Assembly (NCBI GenBank): GCA_963723855.1
Contig: CAVRSI010000011.1
Coordinates: forward strand, 122,181 to 186,180
Length of the DNA: 64,000 nucleotides
Source: an uncultured Actinomycetes bacterium
GTDB lineage: Bacteria > Actinomycetota > UBA4738 > HRBIN12
Direction: 5' to 3'
How positions within the stretch are numbered: position 1 is the stretch's first letter; every line of letters begins with the position of its first letter. This document shows, in pieces, positions 11,296-23,238 of the stretch. A model generated the notes under the pieces. That model saw only the letters and a list, made by a program, of their open reading frames with translations, ran no database searches and was not told where the DNA came from. The position numbers were made by a program, and so were the translations under genes.

Positions 11296-13696
11296 CTATA
11301 CGGGAGGCCGCGCTCGCGCTTCGTCGCCTCCGTCGCGGAGCTCGCCGCGCAGGTCCTGCGCGACCCGGGCACTGATGCGACCGACCGCCTCGTCGGCCTC
11401 GTCGCGCTCGAGCGTGCGGGAGGGGTCGCGGAACTCCACCGAGAACGCCAAGCTCTTCTTGCCGGCCGGCAACGGAGGTCCGGTGTGGACGTCGAACAGG
11501 ATGCAGGAGGCCACGAGGTCGCCGCCCGCCTCGCGGATGGCCGACACGACGGCGTCGTGCGGGACCGCTTCGTCGAGCACGAACGACAGGTCCCGGCGGA
11601 TGGGTGGGAACCTCGGGACGTCGCCGGCCTGCAGCGTCGTCGCGGCATGGCGCATGAGCGTCTCGATCTCGAGCTCCGCCGTGGCGATGCGCCCGGGGAC
11701 GTCGAGCGACTCCGCCACCCGCGGGTGGATCTCGCCGAGCACGCCGACGCGCGCGCCGTCGACCAGGACGAACGCCGAGCGACCCGGATGGAACAACGGG
11801 CCGGGAGGCTCACCCAGCGACCACACGATCCCGAGATCGGCCATCAACGCGTCGACCGCCCCCTTCGCATCGAAGAAGTCGTACTCGCGACGACCTGTCC
11901 AGGCGCTCTCGGCCGCTCCCGTGAACGCGAGGGCGGCCATGGGCCGCTCCTGGGGCTCCCCTTCGACCATCCGGAAGACCGTCCCGACCTCGAAGAGGGC
12001 GACGCTGCGCACCTGCCGGTAGGCGTTGCGGCGGATCGCGGCGAGCAGGCCCGGAGTGAGCCGCGTTCGGAGCCAGGGATCGTCGGCCTGCAGCGGGTTC
12101 GTGACGGCGATCGCATCGCCGTCGCCCGTCAGCGCCAGGTCCGCGTCGGATGCGAACGGGAACGACCGGACCTCCCGCAGCCCGGCCCGCATCAACGAGG
12201 TCCGGACACGGTGGCGGAACTCGTAGGCGTCCGGCATCCCTCCGGGCTGGCGGATCGCCGGGAGGGTCGATCCGACCCGGTCGTAGCCCTGGACGCGCAC
12301 GACCTCCTCGATCAGATCGACCTCGCGCTCGATGTCCACCCGATAGCCGGGCACCTCGACCGTCACGTCGTCGCCCGAGACCTCCGACCGCATCATCAGG
12401 CGTTCGAAGACCTGGGCCGCGTCCCCCGGCGAGACGTCGTAGCCGATCAGCGTCGTGGCCCGGCCGGCACGCATCGTCACGTGCCGCCGCTGCGGCACGG
12501 CTCCGGCCTCGACCGTGCCGCGAAGGACGCGGGCGCCGCACCACTCCGCCATCGAGACGGCACGCCCGATCCGCCCCGATCGACGCAGCCTCGGGATCGA
12601 CCCCGCGCTCGAACCGCATCGAAGCCTCGGTGGAGAGGTCGATCCGCCGTCGCGTCCTCTGGATCCCGCCGCGTTCGAAGGACGCCGCCTCGAGCAGGAC
12701 CTGATCGGTCGCGTCGGAGATCTCGGCGACGGAACCGCCCATCACGCCGGCGATGCCGACCGGACGCTCGAGGTCGCAGATCAGCAGGTCGTCGTCGGTG
12801 AGCGTCCGTTCGACGTCGTCGAGGGTGACCATCCGCTCGCCCTCGGCCGCCCGTCGCACGACGATCCCCGGGCCCTTGAGGAGCGCGAGATCGAACGGAT
12901 GCAGCGGTTGTCCGATCTCGAGCATCGCGTAGTTCGTGGCATCGACGGCGGCCGAGATCGGACGCATCCCCGCAGCGGTCAGGCGCGCCTGCACGCGGAC
13001 CGGCGATCTGGTGTGCCGAACGCCGCGAAGGATGCGAGCGACGTAGTGGGAGCACCGCTCCGGGTCGACGACGTCGACCGTGGCGACGCCTTCGGCGGGC
13101 TCCTCGTCCTCGACCACATCGATCGGCGGGAGCGTGAACGGGACCCCCGTCGCGGCCGCAACCTCCCGCGCCACGCCGATCACGGACAGGAAGTCGGCCC
13201 GGTTCGGCGTCACCTCGATATCGAGGACCGCGTCGTCCAGTCCCAGCGCCGCCTTCAGATCGTCGCCCGGCGTGAGGTCGTCGCCGAGGAGCAGGATGCC
13301 TTCATGGGTCGGCGCGATGCCCAACTCCATCGGCGAGCAGAGCATGCCTTCGGACACCACGCCCCGGATCTCGCGCGCGGTGAGCGGGGCCGGCAGCGCC
13401 GGTACCCGCGCGCCCGGTCCCGCGAGCGGTACGAGATCGCCCGCGACCATGTTGCGAACGCCGACGACAACCTCACGCTCCGACGAGCCGGTGCTCACGC
13501 GTGCCAGGCAGAGCTTGTCCGAGTTCGGATGGTCGCGGACCTCGAGGACCTTCGCGACGACGACGCCCTCGAGCCCGTCCCACGGGCGCTCGATCCGTTC
13601 GACCTCCGAGCCTTTCGACGTGAGGAGCTCGGCCAGATCCTCCGCCGAGAGGTCGACCGGGCAGCACTCGAGCAGCCAGGAGCGGACGATCTTCAT
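11296..13696 (-). CDS. pheT: Phenylalanyl-tRNA synthetase beta subunit; apparent frameshift near 12545
   Basis: The N-terminal 629 aa (MKIVRSWL... through B3/4 and B5 domains) is in the 11810..14314 frame. The C-terminal 418 aa, including the FDX-ACB domain, is in the 11296..12552 frame. Removing a single T near the ADRA/AVSMAEWCG junction would restore the frame. Confidence 0.9.
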
Positions 13697-14739
13697 GCGA
13701 CGCCTTGGAACTGCTCGAGGAAGCGCACGTCGCCCTCGACGAATAGCCGCATGTCCGGCACGCCGTACTGGATCATGGCGACCCGCTCGATCCCCAGGCC
13801 GAACGCGAACCCGGTGTACCGCTCGCTGTCGTACCCGCAATTCTCGAGCACCTTGGGATGGACCATGCCGGCGCCGAGCAGCTCGATCCAGCCGTTGCCG
13901 CACGTGCGGCACCCGACGCCGTCGCAGATGAAGCACGATACGGCGACCTGGGCCCCCGGCTCGACGAACGGGAAGTAGTCGGGGTTCAGGCGCACCTTGC
14001 GATCGCCCCCGAACATCGCTCGTGCGAACGTCTCCAGCGTCCCCTTCAGGTCGGCGAACGAGATGCCCTCGTCGACCGCCAGACATTCGACCTGATGGAA
14101 GACGGGCAGGTGCGTCGCGTCGGGGGTCTCCTGGCGATACACCCGACCGGGAGACACGATGTGGATCGGCGGATCCTGCGTCTCCATGGTGCGGATCTGC
14201 GCGGCGGACGTCTCGGTGCGCAGCAGGCGGCCGGGGATGTCGACGTAGAGCGAGTCCTTCATGGTCCGGGCGGGGTGGTCCGGCGGGATGTTCAGCGCCT
14301 CGAAGTTGTGCCAATCGTCCTCGATCTCCGGGCCCTCCACCACCTGGTAGCCCATCCGGGTGAAGACCTCGACGATCCGCCGCTCCACGATGGCGAGCGG
14401 GTTCAGGGATCCCGGACGCGGCCGGCGACCCGGGAGTGTCACGTCGACACCGTCGGCTTCGAGCAGGCGCGACTCGGCCGCCAGATCGAGCGCCGCTCTG
14501 CGCTCGTCGATCGCCGCCGTCAGCGCGTCGCGGACCTCGTTCGCGAGCATCCCCACGGCTTTGCGGTCCTCGTGGTCGAACGAGCCCAGGGCGCGTTGCG
14601 CCTCGGCGAAGCGGCCCTTCCGCCCGAGCACGGAGGACTTCGCGGCCTCCAGCTCCTCACGCGACGTCGCAGCGGCGATCGCCGCGAGGCCGCGGGCGCG
14701 CTCTTCCTCGAGGATCGTGCGGGCTTCGTTGGCGTCCAT
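13693..14739 (-). CDS. pheS: Phenylalanyl-tRNA synthetase alpha subunit
   Basis: About 348 aa starting MDANEARTIL, with class II aaRS motifs. It overlaps the pheT start by 4 nt (ATGA). Confidence 0.93.
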   Translation of the reverse strand: MDANEARTILEEERARGLAAIAAATSREELEAAKSSVLGRKGRFAEAQRALGSFDHEDRKAVGMLANEVRDALTAAIDERRAALDLAAESRLLEADGVDVTLPGRRPRPGSLNPLAIVERRIVEVFTRMGYQVVEGPEIEDDWHNFEALNIPPDHPARTMKDSLYVDIPGRLLRTETSAAQIRTMETQDPPIHIVSPGRVYRQETPDATHLPVFHQVECLAVDEGISFADLKGTLETFARAMFGGDRKVRLNPDYFPFVEPGAQVAVSCFICDGVGCRTCGNGWIELLGAGMVHPKVLENCGYDSERYTGFAFGLGIERVAMIQYGVPDMRLFVEGDVRFLEQFQGVA

Positions 14740-14768
14740 CTGGCCGCCGAGTCTAACAACGTCCCTGT

Positions 14769-16223
14769 TCAGCCCGGCGTTGTGAGTGGGATGTCCAGAT
14801 GGAACGACAGCCGGCCGTCCGCGACTTCCGCCCACGCGCGGCCGCCCTGCGCGCTCGCCACGCCGCGCGCCACGAACAGGCCGATCTTGCTGCCCGCGCC
14901 CGTCCCGGGCCGGCGTGCGGCGAACAGCGCCTCGGCATCGACGCTGGTGAGCTCGGTCCCGTCCCGCCACACGGTGAGCTGCAAGCGATCGCCGACGCGG
15001 CCCCCTTCGATCGTGATCGGCCCTTCTCGTCCCCACCAGGCCTGCGCCTCGATGAACGACAGCAGCGCGCTCTTCACGCGCGCGGGATCGGCGACGACGA
15101 CGTCGCCCTTCCCGGCCCAGCGCACCTCGGGATGCTCGGGGTCGCGTTTCACCGACGCGACGATCCCCCGACCCAGCTCCGTCAGATCGATCCGTTCCGG
15201 GAACATCTCGAGCGTGCCCGCTGCGACCCGGCCGGCGTCGACCAGCAGGCGCAGGATCGCGTCCATCCGGTCGGCGTCGTAGACGATGCCTCGGAGCATC
15301 AGCGCCCGCTGCTCCTCCGTCATGATCTCCCACCGCTTCTCCAGCGCGTAGCCGAAGCCCTTCATCGCCGTCAGGGGCGAGCGGATGTCGTGAGCGGCGG
15401 CGGCCACGATCGTCTCGAGCGCGACGGTGCCGCTTCGACGCCTCCGAGCCCATTCGAACAGACACACGGTGGCGGCGGCCGCGAGGTTGAGCGACTCCGC
15501 CTTGCCCTGATGCGGGACCCGAACCGTGGCGTCGGCCAGCGCGAGGACGTCGTCGGGCAGCCCGTGCGCCTCGTTGCCGAACACGAAGACGACCGGCACG
15601 CTCAGGTCCACAGCGTATAGGTCCTGTTCGCCGTGCCCATCCATCGCGAGCACCCGCATCCCCTTGTCGCGTGCCCCCTGGAGGACGGCTGCCGTTCCCT
15701 CGTCGCGGACGATCGGCAGATGGAAGATCGACCCCGCCGAGGATCGCACGGTCTTGGGGTTGTAGACATCCACCGAGCTGGCCGTGAACACGACTCCCCC
15801 GGCCCCGGCGGCGTCCGCCGACCGCAGCACCGTTCCGGCGTTGCCGGGGTCACGCACTTCGTGCAGCACCGCCACGCACCCGTCGCTCGGCAACGCGTCG
15901 GACCCGACGTCGAGGAACGGGCACACACCCACGATCCCCTGCGGCGTCACCGTGGACGTCAGCTTGGCCATCACGTCCGAGCTGACCTCGTTGACGTCGA
16001 CGCCCGACTGACGTGCGCGGACCGCCAGTGGGTCCGCCCCATCGCTCACGAACAGCGCGAGGAGGGCCTCGGGATGCTCCAGGGCCTCACCGACCCCCTG
16101 GGCTCCTTCGACCAGGAAGCGGCGATCGTCTTCGCGGAACGCGCGCTTCTTCAGGCGAACGGCCGCGGCGATCTTCGGGTTCTTGATGGACGTCAGCACG
16201 GCACCGGATCCGCCACGAGACAC
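14769..16223 (-). CDS. TrmH/SpoU-family rRNA 2'-O-methyltransferase (RlmB/TsnR-like) fused to a C-terminal histidine-kinase catalytic core (HisKA + HATPase_c)
   Basis: The N-terminal ~260 aa carry an L30e-like domain plus SpoU motifs (RDPGNAGTVLRS, FGNEAHGL, ESLNLAAAATVCLFE). The C-terminal ~220 aa carry an H-box (AAHDIRSPLTAMKGF) and G-box (GSKIGLFVARGVASAQGG). It is one continuous 484 aa ORF. Confidence 0.8.
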   Translation of the reverse strand: MSRGGSGAVLTSIKNPKIAAAVRLKKRAFREDDRRFLVEGAQGVGEALEHPEALLALFVSDGADPLAVRARQSGVDVNEVSSDVMAKLTSTVTPQGIVGVCPFLDVGSDALPSDGCVAVLHEVRDPGNAGTVLRSADAAGAGGVVFTASSVDVYNPKTVRSSAGSIFHLPIVRDEGTAAVLQGARDKGMRVLAMDGHGEQDLYAVDLSVPVVFVFGNEAHGLPDDVLALADATVRVPHQGKAESLNLAAAATVCLFEWARRRRSGTVALETIVAAAAHDIRSPLTAMKGFGYALEKRWEIMTEEQRALMLRGIVYDADRMDAILRLLVDAGRVAAGTLEMFPERIDLTELGRGIVASVKRDPEHPEVRWAGKGDVVVADPARVKSALLSFIEAQAWWGREGPITIEGGRVGDRLQLTVWRDGTELTSVDAEALFAARRPGTGAGSKIGLFVARGVASAQGGRAWAEVADGRLSFHLDIPLTTPG

Positions 16224-16248
16224 CCGAAGCGCATGGCTCCGGCTTCCG

Positions 16249-16614
16249 TCAGGATGCGGCGGGGAGTGCCGACTTCGCGGTCTCGACGAGCGATGCGAAC
16301 GCCGCCGGATCGTTCACCGCGAGATCGGCGAGGATCTTGCGGTCGACCTCGACGCCGGCGGTCTTGAGTCCGTTCATCAATCGCGAGTACGACAACCCGT
16401 GCGGCCGGGCGGCGGCGTTGATCCGCACGATCCAGAGCCGGCGGAACTGCGCCTTGCGATCGCGGCGATCGCGGTAGGCGTAGTTGCCGGAGTGCATGAC
16501 CTGTTCCTTGGCCACGCGGTAACGCGTGTTGCGGCTCCCCGTGTAGCCCTTCGCCTTCTCGAGGATCTCGCGGCGCTTCTTCTTCGCGTGGACCGATCGC
16601 TTCACCCGTGCCAT
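16249..16614 (-). CDS. rplT: 50S ribosomal protein L20
   Basis: 121 aa starting [18 protein letters not shown]. Confidence 0.95.
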
Positions 16615-16618
16615 ACGG

Positions 16619-16810
16619 TCATGCCCCCAACAGTCGCTTGATCTTCTTGCGCTCCGCGGTGACCTCCGACATGCCTTCGACACGCCGGCGCCGGCTGGAG
16701 CTCTTCTTCGTGAGCATGTGGTTGCCCGTCGCCTTGCGGTGGAGCAGCTTCCCGTTCCGCGTGATGCGGAACCGCTTCGCCGCCGAGCGGTTGGTCTTCA
16801 TCTTCGGCAT
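16619..16810 (-). CDS. rpmI: 50S ribosomal protein L35
   Basis: 63 aa starting [14 protein letters not shown]. Confidence 0.95.
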
Positions 16811-16817
16811 CTCGATG

Positions 16818-17372
16818 TCACCCTTCGTCGGATGCGGGTGCCGCACCTGAGTCGGTCTCGGCCACCTTGGCCTCGACCTGTTTCTTGGTGGGGGCGATCA
16901 CCATGATCATGTTGCGCCCCTCTTGCTTCGGCATGGACTCGACGACGATGGTATCGCCGAGCTCCGAGATCAGTTGGTCCAGGATCTTGCGTCCGAGGTC
17001 CGTGTGCGCCATCTCGCGCCCGCGGAACATGATGGTGATCTTGACCTTGGCTCCCGCCTTCAGGAACCGTTCGACGTGGCCCTTCTTCGTGGCGTAGTCG
17101 TGCCGGTCGATCTTGGGGCGGAACTTGATCTCCTTGACCTCGACCCGCGATTGCTTCTTGCGAGCCTCCTTCTGGCGGATGTCGCGTTCGTACTTGTACT
17201 TGCCGTAGTCCATGATCCTGCACACCGGCGGATCGGCCTGCGGCGCGACCTCCACGAGATCCAGGTCGAGGTCCCGAGCCTGTCTCAGAGCGTCCTGGGT
17301 GGAAACCACCCCGATCTGCTCACCGTCGGCCCCCACCAGACGAACCTGTGGAGACCTGATCCGGTCATTGAT
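16818..17372 (-). CDS. infC: Translation initiation factor IF-3, non-AUG (ATC) start
   Basis: The conserved IF-3 N-terminus INDRIRSPQVRLVGADGEQIGV is in frame with an in-frame TGA a few codons upstream. The only initiator-like codon is ATC at about 17372, consistent with the unusual IF-3 start codons known in other bacteria. Confidence 0.88.
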   Translation of the reverse strand: MNDRIRSPQVRLVGADGEQIGVVSTQDALRQARDLDLDLVEVAPQADPPVCRIMDYGKYKYERDIRQKEARKKQSRVEVKEIKFRPKIDRHDYATKKGHVERFLKAGAKVKITIMFRGREMAHTDLGRKILDQLISELGDTIVVESMPKQEGRNMIMVIAPTKKQVEAKVAETDSGAAPASDEG

Positions 17373-17403
17373 CCTCGGATCTTGCGAGACCCCGCATCAC
17401 CTC

Positions 17404-17500
17404 TTTCGAAAAACAAGCACCGGTCGAGCCGGTGCGCGGACGACACACGTTCTGCCCTGCTGGCCAGCCAGTATAGGTGCCGCCCGCCTCACGTGTCGAC
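17404..17500 (-). promoter_or_regulatory. infC leader: putative promoter (TCGACA-N18-TATACT) followed by an intrinsic-terminator-like hairpin (GCACCGG-CTCGA-CCGGTGC-TTGTTTTT)
   Basis: On the minus strand the promoter-like hexamers precede a perfect 7-bp GC stem plus T-tract (plus coordinates about 17408-17437). The infC start follows directly. Confidence 0.45.
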
Positions 17501-17506
17501 GACGCC

Positions 17507-17848
17507 TCACCAGTCGGGTTCGAGCGGTCTTCCGTACGCATCCTCGAGACGTTGGGTGTCGTCCTCGGTGGTGTATCCGTACGCGATCTCGAGCACCCTG
17601 CCTCGTGTGGTGCCGACGTTGCGGATGCGATGGGTCTCCTCGGCGGCGACCATGAACTCCTCGCCCGCCTGCGCCTCGACGACGCGGTTGCCGATCTCGA
17701 CCGTGAGACCGGGGTCGAGGACGACCCACATCTCGTCCCGCATGCGGTGGTAGTGAACGCTGGTCTCATGGGCGGGCTCCACCGTGATCATGCGAACGGA
17801 GGACGGCTGGTTGAGGGCGTAGGTCGCGACCTTGCCCCAGGGCTTGTC
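17507..17848 (-). CDS. Small cupin-domain protein
   Basis: About 113 aa from a GTG start with cupin motifs (PWGK..., HYH...E..., G.RV). It sits immediately downstream of ribH. Confidence 0.6.
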   Translation of the reverse strand, partial: DKPWGKVATYALNQPSSVRMITVEPAHETSVHYHRMRDEMWVVLDPGLTVEIGNRVVEAQAGEEFMVAAEETHRIRNVGTTRGRVLEIAYGYTTEDDTQRLEDAYGRPLEPDW

Positions 17849-17853
17849 GACGA

Positions 17854-18372
17854 TCACGGGGTCCCCCCTATCGTCACCGTCTGCTCGCTCCCCTCTCCGA
17901 TCCCGGCGTCGGGCAGCTGCTCCAGCACCGACACCATCGAGAGCACGGCGTCTGCCGCCTCCCAACCCTTGTTGCCGTGCGCGCCGCCGGCGCGATCCTC
18001 GGCCTGGGCCAGGTTCTCGACCGCGAGGACCTCGAAGATGACGGGGATGCCCGTGTCGCGGGCGACGTCGGCGATGCCTCTGGCCGCCTCGTTCGCTACC
18101 AGATCGAAATGCGCGGTCTCACCGCGGATCACCGCGCCCAGGCAGATGACGCCGTCGAACCGACCGGAGCGAGCGAACCGCTGCGCGACGAGCGGGATCT
18201 CGAACGCGCCCGGCACCCAGGCCACGTCGATGGCGTCGTCCGCCACCCCGAGGGCAGTCAGTCGGGCGACCGCCCCGTCGACGAGCTTGCGGGTGATGAC
18301 CTCGTTGAAGCGCGCCGCGACGATCGCGATCCGCCGGCCGGCACCCTGCGCGGGACCCTCGTAGACGTTCAC
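17854..18372 (-). CDS. ribH: 6,7-dimethyl-8-ribityllumazine synthase
   Basis: 172 aa with the typical RibH core ([10 protein letters not shown]..., GAFEIP). Confidence 0.9.
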
Positions 18373-19649
18373 CGTTCGCCCGCTCCATCCAGGACCGGCG
18401 CATCGGGCAGGCCGTCGAGCAGGTGACCCATCTTCTCTCGCTTGGTCCGCAGGTATCCGATGTTCTCGGGCGTGGGCTCGGTCTGGATCGGGATACGCGC
18501 GGAGATGGACAGCCCGTGCCCCTCGAGGCCGGCGCGCTTCGCAGGATTATTCGTGAGCAGCCGCATCGTCCGAACGCCGAGGTCGACCAGGATCTGCGCG
18601 CCGATCCCGTACTCGCGCGGATCGGCCGGGAACCCGAGGTCGGTGTTGGCCTGGACGGTGTCGCGGCCCTGGTCCTGCAGCTCGTACGCGCGGAACTTGT
18701 GGGTCAGCCCGATCGCCCTGCCCTCGTGCCCGCGGATGTAGAGGACGACGCCACGGCCCTCCTTGCCGATGATCTCCAACGACCGGTGCAGCTGCTCGCC
18801 GCAGTCGCACCGGAGCGACGCGAAGACATCCCCCGTCAAACACTCCGAGTGCACACGCGTCAGGACGTCTCGCCCGTCGCCGATGTCTCCGTGCACCAGG
18901 GCCACGTGCGTCCGGCCGTCCACGGCACTCTCGTACGCGTAGGAACGGAACTCGCCGTACGGGGTCGGGATGGTCGCCTCGGCCACCTTCGAGACGAGGA
19001 TCTCGTTCGCGCGCCGGTAGGCGATGAGGTCGGCGATCGAGATGATCTTCAGCCCGTGTTCGGCGGCGAAGCGCACCAGATCCGGCAGCCGGGCCATGGA
19101 GCCGTCCTCGTTGACCGTCTCGCAGAGGACCCCCGCCGGGTACAGCCCCGCGAGACGCGCCAGGTCGACGGACGCCTCGGTGTGACCCGCACGCTTGAGG
19201 ACGCCGCCCTCCCGGTAGCGAAGGGGGAAGATGTGCCCCGGACGGGAGAGGTCCTGCGGAACGGTGTCGGGATGGACGATCGCCTGGATCGTGCTGGCCC
19301 GGTCGGCCGCCGAGATCCCCGTGGTGACGCCCCGGCGCGCATCCACCGAGACGGTGAACGCCGTGTGGCGCTGATCGGTGTTGTCGGCCACCATCAACGG
19401 GATCTCCAGCTCGTCGAGGCGATCGCCGACCACGGGCATGCAGATCACGCCGCTCGAGTGCCGCACGATGAACGCGATCGCCTCGGGCGTCACCTTCTCC
19501 GCCGCCATGATCAGGTCGCCTTCGTTCTCTCGGTCGGCATCGTCGACGACGATCACCACCCGCCCGGCGCGGATGTCTTCGACCGCCTCCGGGATGGACG
19601 AGAACGGCGACGTCTCCGTGCCCGTGTGCTCCTGTTCGCTCATCGTCAT
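18369..19649 (-). CDS. ribBA: Bifunctional 3,4-dihydroxy-2-butanone-4-phosphate synthase / GTP cyclohydrolase II
   Basis: 426 aa starting MTMSEQEH. The DHBP synthase half is followed by GTP cyclohydrolase II zinc cysteines ([15 protein letters not shown]). Confidence 0.93.
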
Positions 19650-20272
19650 CGTCCTTCCATACCTTCGGCCATCTCTCCCCATTCTCCGGCGATCTCGTCT
19701 GCCATGAGCCGCTCGACGTATTTCGCGATCACATCGACTTCCAGGTTCACGACGTCCCCCGGAACGACCGTTCCCAGCGTGGTCACGGCGAGCGTGTGAG
19801 GGATCAACGCCACCTCGATAGCTTCGCCGGCGATCGCCGCGACCGTGAGGCTCACACCGTCCACCGAGACGGACCCTTTCTCCACGACGTAGCGGAGCAG
19901 TCCTTCCGGAACGCGAACGGCGATCACGGCGCCGCCGTCGTCGTCTCGGTCCATGCCGGTGACCTCGCCGACCCCGTCCACGTGCCCCTGCACGAGGTGG
20001 CCGCCGAGCCGCGCGGAGAGCGTCACCGGCCGCTCGAGGTTCACCGGGTCGCCGGGAGTGAGCCTGCCCAGGGTCGATCGATCGAGCGTCTCCGGCGACA
20101 GGTCGAACGAGAGGTCGCCGGCGCCTCTCGCGACCACCGTCAAGCACACCCCGTTCACCGCGACCGAGGCTCCGATGTCGCTATCGGTGACGACGGTCCG
20201 ACAGCCGACCACGAGCCGGGATGTGCCGGCTTCGAGCACGACGCCGCGCTCCTCAACGATCCCCGTGAACAT
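19646..20272 (-). CDS. ribE: Riboflavin synthase alpha subunit
   Basis: 208 aa ([10 protein letters not shown]...), two lumazine-binding repeats. Confidence 0.9.
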
Positions 20273-21380
20273 CCGCCTCCACCTTCAGGTCGTCCCCGAT
20301 CCGTTCCACGCTCACGATGCGGAGCCCTAGCGCCCGACCGATGGGCGCGAAGCCCTCCCCCATGAGGATCCCGGGCGCCTCCGCGCCGCCGACCAGCTTG
20401 GGCGCCAGGTAGAGCACGACCCGGTCGATCAGGCGTTGCTCCACGAAGCTCCATGCCAGGGTCGCTCCGCCCTCCAGCAGGACGCCCTGCACGTCGCGCT
20501 TGCCCAGATGCGCCAAGAGGTCGGGGAGACAGACGCCCCCCGTCTCGTCGGTATCGAACGACTCGACGTCGGCTCCGGCGGCCGTCCACCCATCGACCTC
20601 GCCGCGTGAGGCTCGGCCGGTCGTGGCGACGAGGGTCGGAGCCGATCCGTCGAAGACGCGGGCGTTCGCCGGGACGCGGCCGGACGCGTCGACGACGACG
20701 CGCAGCGGAGGACGGCCTCGGTAGGAGGGCTCGCGGACCGTGAGCGCGGGATCGTCGTCGACCACGGTGCCCGCGCCGACCACGATCGCGTCGGACGCGG
20801 CGCGGAGGCGGTGCGCGTCCTCGCGCGCGGCCTCACCCGTGATCCATCTGGACGACCGGTCCGTCGCGGCCGTCTTGCCGTCGAGCGACGCGGCGGTCTT
20901 CAAGGTGACGAGCGGGAGTCCCGTCACGACGTGGCGTTCGAACGCGGCATTCAACCTGCGGGATGCGTCTTGCAGGACGCCGTCCACGACGTCGACCCCG
21001 GAGACGCGCAGGCGCTCGAACCCGCGGCCGTCGACGAGGGGGTTCGGGTCACCCGCCGCGACGATCGCCCGTGCGACGCCCGCCTCGACGATCGCGGTCG
21101 TGCACGGCGGCGTCCGTCCCACGTGATCGCAGGGTTCGAGGGTGCAATAGAGGGTCGCGCCGCGGGCCAGCTCGCCCGCGGCCTCAAGCGCCCGTGCCTC
21201 GGCGTGCGGGGTACCTGGGCCCTCGTGCCAGCCCTCGCCCACCACACGGCCGTCGCGAACGACGACGGCGCCGACCATGGGGTTCGGGGAGACGAGGCCT
21301 CGTCCGAGTGCCGCGAGCTCCAGGGCGCGCCGCATGTGACGCTCGTGGTCCCCGTCCTGCGCTGCGCCTGGCGTCGTCAT
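20253..21380 (-). CDS. ribD: Bifunctional riboflavin biosynthesis deaminase/reductase
   Basis: Has the CMP/dCMP deaminase zinc motif (HAEARAL..., TLEPC) and a C-terminal reductase domain. Probable start is ATG at about 21380, preceded by GAGG. Confidence 0.88.
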   Translation of the reverse strand: MTTPGAAQDGDHERHMRRALELAALGRGLVSPNPMVGAVVVRDGRVVGEGWHEGPGTPHAEARALEAAGELARGATLYCTLEPCDHVGRTPPCTTAIVEAGVARAIVAAGDPNPLVDGRGFERLRVSGVDVVDGVLQDASRRLNAAFERHVVTGLPLVTLKTAASLDGKTAATDRSSRWITGEAAREDAHRLRAASDAIVVGAGTVVDDDPALTVREPSYRGRPPLRVVVDASGRVPANARVFDGSAPTLVATTGRASRGEVDGWTAAGADVESFDTDETGGVCLPDLLAHLGKRDVQGVLLEGGATLAWSFVEQRLIDRVVLYLAPKLVGGAEAPGILMGEGFAPIGRALGLRIVSVERIGDDLKVEADVHGDR

Positions 21381-21444
21381 CCTCGAGCCTTCCATCGGGG
21401 CGAGGATCGGGCGAACGCGGCGCGCGGCTCCGCGCACACGGCGG

Positions 21445-21580
21445 AACCGCCACCCCGTCTCCTCCCATCCCGACTTTCACGGTCGGTCCCGGAATCTCAC
21501 CGGATCAACCCTCGCGTGGCTCGCGAGGGGTCGCGGACTTTCACCGCCGGTGGGGAATCGCACCCCGCCCCGGAAACGAG
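21445..21580 (-). ncRNA. FMN riboswitch (RFN element) controlling the ribD-ribE-ribBA-ribH operon
   Basis: The minus strand reads TTCCGGGGCGGGGTGCGATTCCCCACCGGCGGTGAAAGTCCGCGACC...GGTTGATCCGGTGAGATTCCGGGACCGACCGTGAAAGTCGGGATGGGAGGAG. This matches the conserved RFN core blocks. Confidence 0.88.
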
Positions 21581-21642
21581 TTATCTCGAGAACGAGTATA
21601 CGAGCGAGCCCGTCGGCCGGTCCAGGCGTGCGCCGCGGCCCG

Positions 21643-22572
21643 TCAGGGGGCGCGGCGGTCGATCGCGTACGACGAGCCGCCGTCACGCTTGGCGAACTGC
21701 TTCATCTCGGTGGCCACCGCGACCGCCTCGCCGTAGTGGAGGAACGCGCGCCGGGCCGTCGTGGCGATGCCGACCGAGATGGCCACGAGCGGCACGTCCT
21801 GCATGACCCCCTTACGGTCCTCCATGCGGATGAACCCGCGATCGAGATCCTCGGACTCGTAGAAGCCCGAACGCGAGCCGTCGAACCGTTCGCAGATGCG
21901 CTTCGCGACCGCCTCGGCGAAGTCGGGGTTCACCACGGCCACGAAGTCGTCTCCACCCACGTGTCCGACGAAGCCTTCGCCCGGATCGAACTCGACGACG
22001 GCGTCCTGGATGATGCGCGCCGTCGCCTGGATCAGCCGGTCGCCGCGCACGAAGCCCTTCTGGTCGTTGTACGTCTTGAAGTTGTCGAGGTCGCAGTACA
22101 GCACCGCGAACGGTCGCGCCTCGCGCACCTGCCGTTCGATCTCCTCCTGGATCCGGATGTTCCCCGGCAAGCCCGTGAGCGGCGAGAGGTTGCGCATCTC
22201 CTTCGCGCGACGGAGCGTGCCCTTCACGCGCGCCAGGAGCTCGATCGGGTCGAACGGTTTGATGATGTAGTCGTCGGCGCCGGACTGCAGCCCGGTCACC
22301 TTGTCCGCGGAGAGCGCCTTGGCGGTCAGCATGATGATGCTGGTGTTCGCGGTCTGCGGGTTCTTGCGCAGTCGCTGCGCGACCTCGAAACCGTCGATGC
22401 GCGGCATCATCACGTCGAGGAGCACCAGGTCCGGACGGAGCTCCCCGGCCTTCTCGAGCGCCTCTTCGCCGTCGGCCGCGACGGCGACGTCGTAGCCGGC
22501 CGATCGGAGGTTCACCTCGACGAACCGCGCGATATCGGGATCGTCGTCGACGACGAGGATGGTCTCGGCCAT
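21643..22572 (-). CDS. Response regulator with receiver domain and GGDEF-type diguanylate cyclase domain (signature reads GGDDF)
   Basis: N-terminal REC domain (VVDDDPDIARFV...LLDVMMPRIDGFE...) followed by GGDEF-domain blocks (LTGLPGN..., DLDNFKTYND..., HVGGDDFVAVV). Confidence 0.85.
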   Translation of the reverse strand: MAETILVVDDDPDIARFVEVNLRSAGYDVAVAADGEEALEKAGELRPDLVLLDVMMPRIDGFEVAQRLRKNPQTANTSIIMLTAKALSADKVTGLQSGADDYIIKPFDPIELLARVKGTLRRAKEMRNLSPLTGLPGNIRIQEEIERQVREARPFAVLYCDLDNFKTYNDQKGFVRGDRLIQATARIIQDAVVEFDPGEGFVGHVGGDDFVAVVNPDFAEAVAKRICERFDGSRSGFYESEDLDRGFIRMEDRKGVMQDVPLVAISVGIATTARRAFLHYGEAVAVATEMKQFAKRDGGSSYAIDRRAP

Positions 22573-23238
22573 CTACGCTGCCACCTCTCCTCGCGCGATC
22601 GCGGCAAGCTCACGAGCGGCCGTCGTCGGATCGGGCGCCTGGAAGATCGCCGATGCGGCGACCAACACGGTGGCTCCCGCATCGACCGCGCGTTGCGCGT
22701 TGTCGATCTTGACCCCGCCGTCGAGCTCCACATCGGTGGACAGGCCGCGTCGGTCGACCTCGCCCCGCACGGCCTCCAGCCGCGGGTAGACGTCGGGGTT
22801 CAACTCCTGTCCCGACCAGCCCGGCCTGATGCTCATGAGCATCACGTCGTCCAGATCGTCCAGGTACGGGAAGACGGCGTCGACCGGTGTCTCCAGGTTG
22901 AGCGTCATCCCCACGCGCATGCCGGCGCCTCGAGCCTTGGCGATGACGGGCGCCGGGTCCGCGACCGCCTCGTGGTGGAACGACACGATGTCCAGACCCG
23001 CCTCCGCGAGGTCGTCGAACAGGGACTCCGGGGCCTCCACCATGAGGTGTCCGTGGAACGCGCGGTCGGTCACCGGCCGCAGCGAGGCAACGACCACGGG
23101 TCCGATCGTGAGCGGCGGGACGAAGTGCGCATCCATGACGTCGATATGGATTGCTTCGGCATACATCTCCACCAGCTTGACCTGGTCGGCGAGGTGCGCG
23201 AAGTCCGCGGACAGGATCGAGGCGGAGAGCTTGCCCAT
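22573..23238 (-). CDS. rpe: Ribulose-phosphate 3-epimerase
   Basis: About 221 aa starting MGKLSASILSADFAHL, TIM-barrel Rpe motifs. Confidence 0.9.
   Translation of the reverse strand: MGKLSASILSADFAHLADQVKLVEMYAEAIHIDVMDAHFVPPLTIGPVVVASLRPVTDRAFHGHLMVEAPESLFDDLAEAGLDIVSFHHEAVADPAPVIAKARGAGMRVGMTLNLETPVDAVFPYLDDLDDVMLMSIRPGWSGQELNPDVYPRLEAVRGEVDRRGLSTDVELDGGVKIDNAQRAVDAGATVLVAASAIFQAPDPTTAARELAAIARGEVAA

Follow-up and report, generated by a model that had tools for sequence, protein, structure and literature searches.

The infC-rpmI-rplT operon, which encodes the translation initiation factor called IF3 together with two ribosomal proteins, L35 and L20, is preceded in an uncultured Actinomycetota clade by a short region that probably combines the 5' leader and the translation-initiation region of the operon; we studied it at positions 17372-17500, minus strand, of a 64,000-nucleotide (nt) stretch of contig CAVRSI010000011.1 (the window). 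In the explanation that we favor, and to which as a whole we give a probability of roughly 0.55, a sigma-A-type promoter, TCGACA-N18-TATACT, would produce a transcript with about 73 nt ahead of the coding region, composed of some 28 poorly conserved nt, a 7-base-pair (bp) GC hairpin with a U-rich tail and, 12 nt further on, the extended Shine-Dalgarno sequence GAGGUGAU. The hairpin and its U run would act as a leaky factor-independent terminator, damping transcription from the infC promoter and stopping read-through from the rib and cupin genes upstream; carrying neither a built-in sensor nor an antiterminator, it would set the output of the operon and insulate it, and its fixed distance to the Shine-Dalgarno sequence suggests that it also frames the ribosome-binding site. 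Translation would begin at a GUC codon at 17390, positioned 9 nt after GAGG by the strong Shine-Dalgarno sequence. Since GUC mismatches the initiator anticodon at two positions, IF3 would be expected to discriminate against it, which would preserve the classic autoregulation of IF3 in this clade.

Promoter, hairpin and Shine-Dalgarno sequence ahead of infC

Relatives of the region were collected by a protein-seeded scan with one genome per species, one DNA-pattern scan of metagenomes and protein matches that led to four further contigs, which together yielded about 34 members of one uncultured Actinomycetota clade (IF3 identity 75-97%) and about 70 outgroup loci. Thirty sequences make up the main leader alignment, with L201-L204 looked at in addition; hairpin pairing and the RNAalifold consensus were computed from 25 leaders, and codon periodicity from 11 sequences found through their downstream peptides. 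The parts of the region, in the order of transcription, are as follows.

17494-17499, minus strand: -35 hexamer TCGACA of the putative infC operon promoter; GTCGACA nearly invariant in the 30 aligned relatives
17470-17475, minus strand: -10 hexamer TATACT; C-TATACT invariant in 30 of 30 aligned relatives, with unalignable flanks, and present in L201-L204
17441-17450, minus strand: semi-conserved leader motif ACGTGTGTCG, consensus CGTG(TG)TYC
17417-17435, minus strand: terminator-like leader hairpin GCACCGG-CTCGA-CCGGTGC; 7 pairs, 6 of them G-C, a 5-nt loop and a predicted energy of -12.1 kcal/mol
17407-17416, minus strand: U-rich tract TTGTTTTTCG following the hairpin; 7 T among the first 8 nt
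17396-17406, minus strand: extended Shine-Dalgarno sequence AAAGAGGTGAT; includes an in-frame TGA (17399-17397) and overlaps an out-of-frame ATG (17397-17395)
17388-17390, minus strand: GTC, proposed initiation codon of infC; 9 nt past GAGG, as in rpmI and rplT, and homologous to the start of other lineages
17370-17372, minus strand: ATC, the start proposed in an earlier note on this DNA and possibly a secondary one; residue 1 of Pfam IF3_N, 27 nt from GAGG
17334-17336, minus strand: GTG, the start of public annotations (172 amino acids); drops 18 conserved residues, including the start of IF3_N
16818-17390, minus strand: infC (IF3), 190 codons counting from GTC; TGA stop at 16820-16818; Pfam IF3_N (2.7e-33) and IF3_C (2.1e-36)

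The same order, running from the stop codon of the upstream gene through promoter, hairpin and U-rich spacer to the Shine-Dalgarno sequence, recurs in about 34 relatives, and because it is kept where the gene directly upstream differs (cupin, the cold-shock protein gene csp, ribH or another), the hairpin belongs to the infC leader and is not merely a terminator of the rib operon. It is this conservation that makes promoter and hairpin significant, since scans of the single sequence are by themselves unremarkable, since 3 kb contained a single promoter-like site where 0.4 would be expected, and 20 kb contained 5 terminator-like sites where shuffles gave 8.5.

The promoter-like hexamers that the earlier note had pointed out lie at 17499-17470 on the minus strand, match the consensus at 10 of 12 positions and are conserved in the relatives, where they are the most conserved intergenic elements and stand, in every case, between the upstream stop codon and the hairpin. 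The spacer of 18 nt in the window is 17-18 nt long in 25 of 28 scored relatives. Transcription is predicted to start near 17463, and the 27-36 nt that separate the -10 hexamer from the stem cannot be aligned across the 30 relatives save for a loose CGTGTTC motif.

The 7-bp GC hairpin and T-tract were likewise correctly recognized in the earlier note; together with TTGTTTTT the hairpin spans 17435-17409 on the minus strand and is conserved in the relatives, although its distance to the ATC codon is 45 nt (stem end 17417 to ATC 17372) rather than the approximately 30 nt given there. Its arms, GCACCGG and CCGGTGC, are almost invariant in the alignment and 98.9% of the cells are paired, with loop lengths of 3 to 9 nt; the seven G.U cells allow pairing solely in RNA of the infC-sense strand. 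In L010 another stem, of 8 bp, replaces the whole of this one. On average the relatives have 4.5 T in the first 8 nt past the stem against 1.55 expected, and the stem ends 10-13 nt from GGAGG in 28 of 30 relatives (12 nt in the window). A repeated element or a DNA operator was ruled out, as the hairpin occurs once in the window and a dimeric site on DNA would be at odds with loop lengths of 3-9 nt.

Measured against the usual description of an intrinsic terminator (a GC-rich stem of at least 5 bp, a short loop and at least 5 U in 8 nt, all on the transcribed strand), the window has a 7-bp stem with 6 GC pairs and 7 U in the next 8 nt, in a genome where canonical terminators are otherwise rare. 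It differs from the canonical case in its place within a 5' leader, where a Shine-Dalgarno sequence follows 12 nt later, and in that the U tract is degenerate in most relatives. Given that the promoter is always upstream of the hairpin and that just 10-13 nt separate the hairpin from the Shine-Dalgarno sequence, transcripts for IF3, L35 and L20 must cross it.

The infC ribosome-binding site is very strong and conserved: GTGATGCGGGGTCTC is invariant in 9 of 10 unbiased clade sequences, the exception being L012 with GTGGTG, and GAGGTGAT is complementary to the 3' end of 16S rRNA. In the same operon, the distance from the Shine-Dalgarno sequence to ATG is 10 nt for rpmI and 9 nt for rplT. Downstream of the leader hairpin, RNAalifold proposes only one further structure, a small hairpin (GGGUC/GAUCC) inside the first infC codons. 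Termination-reinitiation from a short open reading frame (ORF) ending at the in-frame UGA was considered and rejected, since no more than 13 of 30 sequences have the GTG of this ORF in frame and the UGA is UGG in L012 and L203.

The initiation codon of infC

Beyond the TGA at 17399-17397 no stop interrupts the infC frame, which reads TGC GGG GTC (17390) TCG CAA GAT CCG AGG ATC (17372) AAT GAC CGG ATC and onward. As the earlier note had claimed, the start of infC is non-canonical: ahead of the conserved N-terminus there is no ATG, GTG or TTG in frame, and the first such codon is the GTG at 17336, inside IF3_N. Where we depart from that note is in its view of ATC as the sole codon with which the conserved N-terminus is in frame, for coding-type conservation runs six codons further, to GTC 17390. 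Third-position variation of the coding type is seen in these six codons ahead of ATC 17372 (V-S-x-D/E-P-R), in that codons 2, 4, 5 and 6 (S, D/E, P and R) vary at position 3 alone, with TCG/TCA/TCC, GAT/GAG/GAA and CCG/CCA/CCC as variants, and with a synonymous switch among AGG, CGC, CGT and CGG at the arginine; codons 8-16 behave alike. In the five codons that precede GTC there is no third-position periodicity. Codons -5 and -4, which belong to the Shine-Dalgarno sequence, differ among the sequences at positions 1-2 but are constant at position 3, and the codons next to GTC are nearly fixed (TGA in 10 of 11, TGC in 11 of 11, GGG in 10 of 11). Codon periodicity starts directly after GTC 17390.

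The peptide S-x-D/E-P-R-I-N-D-R is also the IF3 N-terminus of about 50 other Actinomycetota, where it follows an AUC placed 4 nt past GGAGG. Its serine is encoded by AGC there and by TCN in the window clade, which means that selection acts on the protein. At the homologous start L010 has AUG, and L011 and L013 have AUA; in both L010 and L013 the Shine-Dalgarno sequence is followed by UGA, six nucleotides and the start codon, as in the window. The codon at 17390 is GTC in 27 relatives, GTT in 2, GTA in 1 and GTG in none, with a further GTA in L204, and the absence of GTG, which supplies 42% of the valine codons in the rest of the gene, is the pattern expected of a start codon kept non-canonical, like AUH (AUA, AUC or AUU) elsewhere. 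By a rough judgement from these comparisons, we consider it an even bet or slightly better that GUC 17390 is the main infC start, with ATC 17372 as a start that may be used secondarily. The claim for the clade as a whole we hold at even odds: IF3 would start at GUH (GUC, GUU or GUA, never GUG), mismatched to the initiator anticodon at positions 1 and 3 and driven by a 9-nt Shine-Dalgarno complement 9 nt upstream, in place of the AUC of other Actinomycetota.

The infC gene of Escherichia coli reportedly starts at AUU and is autoregulated by IF3, which is said to have been worked out by Butler and co-workers in 1987 and by Sacerdot and co-workers in 1996 and is summed up in PMC5499595. The window infC resembles it in having no canonical start and in using a codon that IF3 should discriminate against; it differs in the identity of the codon, GUC, GUU or GUA in the clade and mismatched at two positions, and in its pairing with a 9-nt Shine-Dalgarno complement. 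The literature describes the infC start as AUU or AUC in every species of bacteria (PMC5499595), and in it we found neither an actinobacterial infC attenuator nor a GUC start. A conserved GUC/GUU/GUA start, if true, would widen the set of natural bacterial initiation codons, no natural gene family having been shown before to rely on a start outside AUG, GUG, UUG, CUG and AUH, and it would extend the logic of IF3 autoregulation to a "double near-cognate" codon. It would also provide a clean natural system for the trade-off between IF3 discrimination and Shine-Dalgarno strength.

Public annotations of the gene are wrong or inconsistent. The exact IF3 protein of the window is listed in NCBI, ENA and JGI with 172 amino acids from the internal GTG, the call made by most gene callers, in a cluster that includes the NCBI-named, 172-residue MGZ6544418.1, whereas the NCBI pipeline starts the genes of sister metagenome-assembled genomes (MAGs) at the isoleucine codon ("MNDRIR..."). 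The GTG 17336 start is wrong, a systematic N-terminal truncation, because it removes conserved IF3_N residues. Given these inconsistencies, IF3 N-termini in this phylum-level group need curation.

One contig, L205 (270-470, protein P0016), is near-identical to the window but lacks single bases in the hairpin loop and codon 3 and has a C-terminal frameshift; an AUG comes into frame and an apparent "MRGLEDPRINDR" protein results. With several indels relative to a near-identical sequence and the C-terminal frameshift, this AUG was treated as an assembly error, probably a long-read one, and the case is a caution for start-codon inference generally.

The L20-leader question and alternative explanations

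In the earlier note, the promoter and hairpin were likened to the L20-responsive transcription attenuator of Bacillus. The Bacillus subtilis infC leader is about 200 nt long, and its 25-nt conserved operator comprises a pair of helices plus an AA dinucleotide (Choonee et al. 2007, PMC1865079); the operator mimics helices H40/H41 of 23S rRNA, the terminator is conserved in structure and not in sequence, and a covarying antiterminator forms between the operator and the 5' arm of the terminator (PMC1865079). Descriptions of L20 leaders are limited to Gammaproteobacteria and Firmicutes, apart from one candidate from Deltaproteobacteria (PMC7247131). The window leader shares with the Bacillus L20_leader (RF00558) its position upstream of infC-rpmI-rplT, a single promoter with a factor-independent terminator, putative in the window, behind it and a non-AUG infC start, and that much of the likeness stands. 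It lacks the other defining features: the part 5' of the hairpin is only about 28 nt long, is not conserved and contains, in the 30 relatives, no 5' operator domain of the kind expected (about 25 nt, two adjacent helices, unpaired AA), and its stem is conserved in sequence as well as in pairing. The covariance search that the note had recommended gave no RF00558 match at E<=10, either in 13000-23000 or in a 221-nt slice (17300-17520). The only match in that test was sroD, at 14.7 bits, on the terminator part, and Rfam scans of the 10 kb and the 221 nt at E<=10 placed no relevant family at the infC leader. An alternative antiterminator fold, whose absence the note had named as telling against its proposal, appears neither in the RNAalifold consensus of the 25 leaders, which has no helix competing with the hairpin, nor in duplex energies, where the upstream leader pairs with the 5' arm at -3 to -9 kcal/mol at best, the hairpin itself reaches -12 to -21, and the mean z relative to shuffles is +0.33. 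Attenuation by a leader peptide or upstream ORF was also rejected, since an NTG motif at -56 to -63 occurs in all three frames and neither peptides nor stop positions are conserved. On these comparisons the window leader is not an L20 leader and should not be filed as one.

Several observations pull against the explanation that we favor, with respect to both the start codon and the hairpin. To our knowledge, GUC is not a known natural start codon, and codons that are not near-cognate initiate in E. coli at about 0.01-1% of AUG (Hecht et al., preprint). At the isoleucine position, 31 sequences have ATC in 18 cases, ATA in 9, TTG in 2, GTG in 1 and ATT in 1; ATA, at 0.3% of the isoleucine codons elsewhere in the gene, is thus strongly enriched there, and this usage, with TTG and GTG as the sole non-isoleucine variants, would fit a start. 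The small hairpin GGGUC/GAUCC could moreover bring the Shine-Dalgarno sequence near ATC. As for the leader hairpin, just 10 of 30 relatives reach 5 T or more within 8 nt of the stem end and L010 has no T tract at all, so termination may be weak or not the selected function, and the stem sequence is conserved beyond what pairing requires, which could mean a protein-binding site instead. The start of transcription, termination at the hairpin, initiation at GUC and feedback by IF3 are, finally, all read from sequence.

That the isoleucine codon ATC 17372 is the only start, which by rough judgement we regard as doubtful, agrees with its being in frame, with its place as residue 1 of IF3_N and with the choice of the NCBI pipeline in sister MAGs; the comparison among relatives favors GTC 17390. 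ATA enrichment as proof of a start at the isoleucine codon is weakened, without being removed as an argument, by a general enrichment of A/T-ending codons across codons 3-16, and the small hairpin would explain part of the conservation and not the arginine-codon or serine-codon patterns. Translation might instead begin at the out-of-frame AUG 17397 (or GUG 17400) and move into the infC frame at CGG-G in a programmed +1 frameshift resembling that of prfB, with the Shine-Dalgarno sequence as stimulator. AUG-CGG-GG does not vary in the clade, L012 still has a GUG there that could serve as a start, and in the sister lineage L201/L202 one G fewer places GUG-GUG-CGG in frame with GUC, as seen in four distinct proteins. 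Yet the AUG lies just 2 nt from GGAGG, within the extended Shine-Dalgarno duplex, and CGG-G is not slippery and has neither a stop nor a clearly rare codon in the A site, unlike prfB with its slippery P-site codon and its A-site stop or rare codon, an arrangement completed in the prfB type by a Shine-Dalgarno-like element 3 nt upstream and by an upstream start conserved in the 0 frame. Nor is the upstream start conserved throughout: L203 has GUU in place of AUG(-7), and L013 has the same geometry without any AUG. L010 retains UGAUGCGG despite its in-frame AUG at the GUC position, so that neither L010 nor L013 needs a frameshift, and the codons preceding GUC have no coding periodicity; we give this scheme the slimmest chance of those weighed here. 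The sister form itself (GGAGGTGGTGCGG-GTC at L201:1490-1520 and L202:1490-1520, with two GUG in frame before GUC and the protein "VVRVSTDPR...") is not a sequencing error, because the same N-terminus recurs in the four distinct JGI proteins, for two of which (L201 and L202) the DNA was obtained.

For the hairpin, the proposal of a Bacillus-type attenuator would have free L20 bind the leader, block an antiterminator and force termination, with translation from ATC 17372. The shared operon, its own promoter followed by a terminator-like hairpin, the long structured leader with terminator that many other Actinomycetes carry before infC (of the Scr1601 type, below) and the start chosen by the NCBI pipeline in sister MAGs can be cited for it; the short unalignable leader, the failure of the RF00558 search and a 5'-arm pairing no better than in shuffles leave it highly improbable. 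More weight, if still well short of likely, belongs to the idea that the hairpin is mainly a structural aid to translation initiation, as an mRNA-stabilizing stem or the boundary of a U-rich single-stranded standby or S1-binding site, offsetting a weak start together with the 9-nt Shine-Dalgarno complement. The narrow spacing of 10-13 nt between stem and Shine-Dalgarno sequence, against 23-77 nt from the start for Nocardioides terminators, the imperfect U tract in two thirds of relatives and the absence of a U-rich tract from L010, the sole member with an AUG start, speak in its favor. Against it, the window tract, with 7 of 8 U after a stem of 6 GC pairs, is that of a textbook intrinsic terminator, the L010 correlation rests on one lineage, and a stem about 28 nt from the predicted 5' end is not a 5'-terminal protective one. 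If, on the other hand, the hairpin were only the terminator of an upstream rib/cupin (or csp) unit and the hexamers irrelevant, as the earlier note had allowed in a simpler form, one would understand why the rib operon lies upstream in almost all relatives and why no other terminator-like structure occurs between the upstream gene and infC. This is insufficient and, in our estimate, slimmer in its prospects than the attenuator: the conserved -35 and -10 hexamers (TATACT in 30 of 30) always lie between the upstream stop and the hairpin, the upstream genes differ, the interval from hairpin to Shine-Dalgarno sequence leaves no room for a second promoter, and full termination at the hairpin would leave infC-rpmI-rplT without a transcript. 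A leaky intrinsic terminator or insulator, which may also help translation, is thus the most likely role for the hairpin as judged from its sequence and setting, and it is the simplest model because no sensor was found.

A trans-acting factor at the hairpin, whether L20, IF3 or Csp, is a candidate addition to this model. In L003, L006 and L010 the rib/cupin genes are separated from the infC promoter by an inserted gene for a cold-shock protein. In E. coli, Csp proteins serve as antiterminators, and IF3 is cold-induced there; it is the insertion of csp next to the infC promoter in some members, together with antitermination by Csp in E. coli, that makes Csp a candidate.

infC leaders in other Actinomycetota and the surrounding genes

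Elsewhere in the phylum, the one form of the infC leader known to Rfam is Scr1601, a Streptomyces "sRNA" that Vockenhuber et al. confirmed and that was subsequently located within an untranslated region (PMC8388888). The Streptomyces region upstream of infC (L043:3684-3896) matches the Rfam family Scr1601 (RF02830) at 178.7 bits and ends in a terminator. A core of the form AAG-Y-GGAG...CUCCCACC, with a covarying loop between its halves, lies 114-277 nt upstream of infC in 39 of 79 loci tested, among them Streptomyces, Nocardioides, Nanopelagicales, Propionibacteriaceae, Slackia and others (e.g. L016, L030, L046, L050 and L075). In Nocardioides and Propionibacteriaceae the core is followed by a strong hairpin and a T tract, the Nocardioides terminators ending, in some cases, 8 nt before the Shine-Dalgarno sequence. 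The Scr1601 model itself gave no match at E<=0.1 on the Nocardioides, Propionibacteriaceae and Slackia loci, though the core motif is visibly shared. By analogy, since an unpaired AA just 5' of a helix recalls the rule for the L20 operator, the Scr1601-type leader may be the missing actinobacterial L20 or IF3 leader; for the high-GC Gram-positives no L20 leader has yet been described.

The window leader is like these in lying upstream of an actinobacterial infC with a putative intrinsic terminator ahead of the Shine-Dalgarno sequence (12 nt, against 8 nt in some Nocardioides). It differs in that the Scr1601-type leader is about 200 nt long with an invariant core, and its infC start is an AUC 4 nt after GGAGG, whereas the core has 0 matches in the window and is absent from L001-L008, L010 and L012. 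A leader terminator before infC thus appears, from these sequences, to be common in the phylum, the window clade having a short version without the Scr1601 domain: a new minimal variant of the promoter-then-terminator layout that is a member of neither L20_leader nor Scr1601. This layout recurs across Actinomycetota in at least two forms, short in the window clade and long in the Scr1601 type, and for this reason leader-terminator control of the IF3/L35/L20 operon may be general in high-GC Gram-positives.

A different N-terminus is found in Thermoleophilia and Solirubrobacterales, where IF3 has a conserved extra segment, (V/M)PVPRRFDRRPPERDTTRINE, from an in-frame canonical GTG about 60 nt upstream of the match start (L018, L024, L027, L031, L034, L037, L040, L059, L060, L062, L071 and L077). 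The segment varies synonymously, and it seems that the non-canonical start of infC has been given up here.

On the minus strand of the window, the order is FMN riboswitch, ribD, ribE, ribBA, ribH, cupin gene, leader region and, as assigned by Pfam, infC, rpmI and rplT, followed downstream of rplT by a SpoU-methylase/histidine-kinase fusion and then pheS and pheT. The genes that flank the leader and infC are the following.

17507-17965, minus strand: cupin gene, the last after ribH, taken from the ORF list; Pfam MannoseP_isomer and Cupin_2
16619-16810, minus strand: rpmI (L35), with its ATG 7 nt past the infC stop; Pfam Ribosomal_L35p (2.7e-18)
16249-16614, minus strand: rplT (L20); Pfam Ribosomal_L20 (1e-45)

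The cupin stop codon is at 17509-17507, leaving 7 nt to the -35 hexamer, and the rib operon, which ends just upstream of the infC promoter, is headed by the FMN riboswitch at 21453-21581 on the minus strand (RF00050, 108 bits, E value 5e-25), ahead of ribD. Beside the rib leader, at 21643-22572 on the minus strand, an ORF judged from its translation alone is PleD-like, with a response-regulator receiver domain fused to a GGDEF-like domain. The fusion downstream of rplT is one ORF of 484 amino acids (14772-16223, minus strand) in which Pfam finds an unusual combination of domains, namely a SpoU/TrmH-type rRNA methyltransferase with its substrate-binding domain together with HisKA and HATPase_c.

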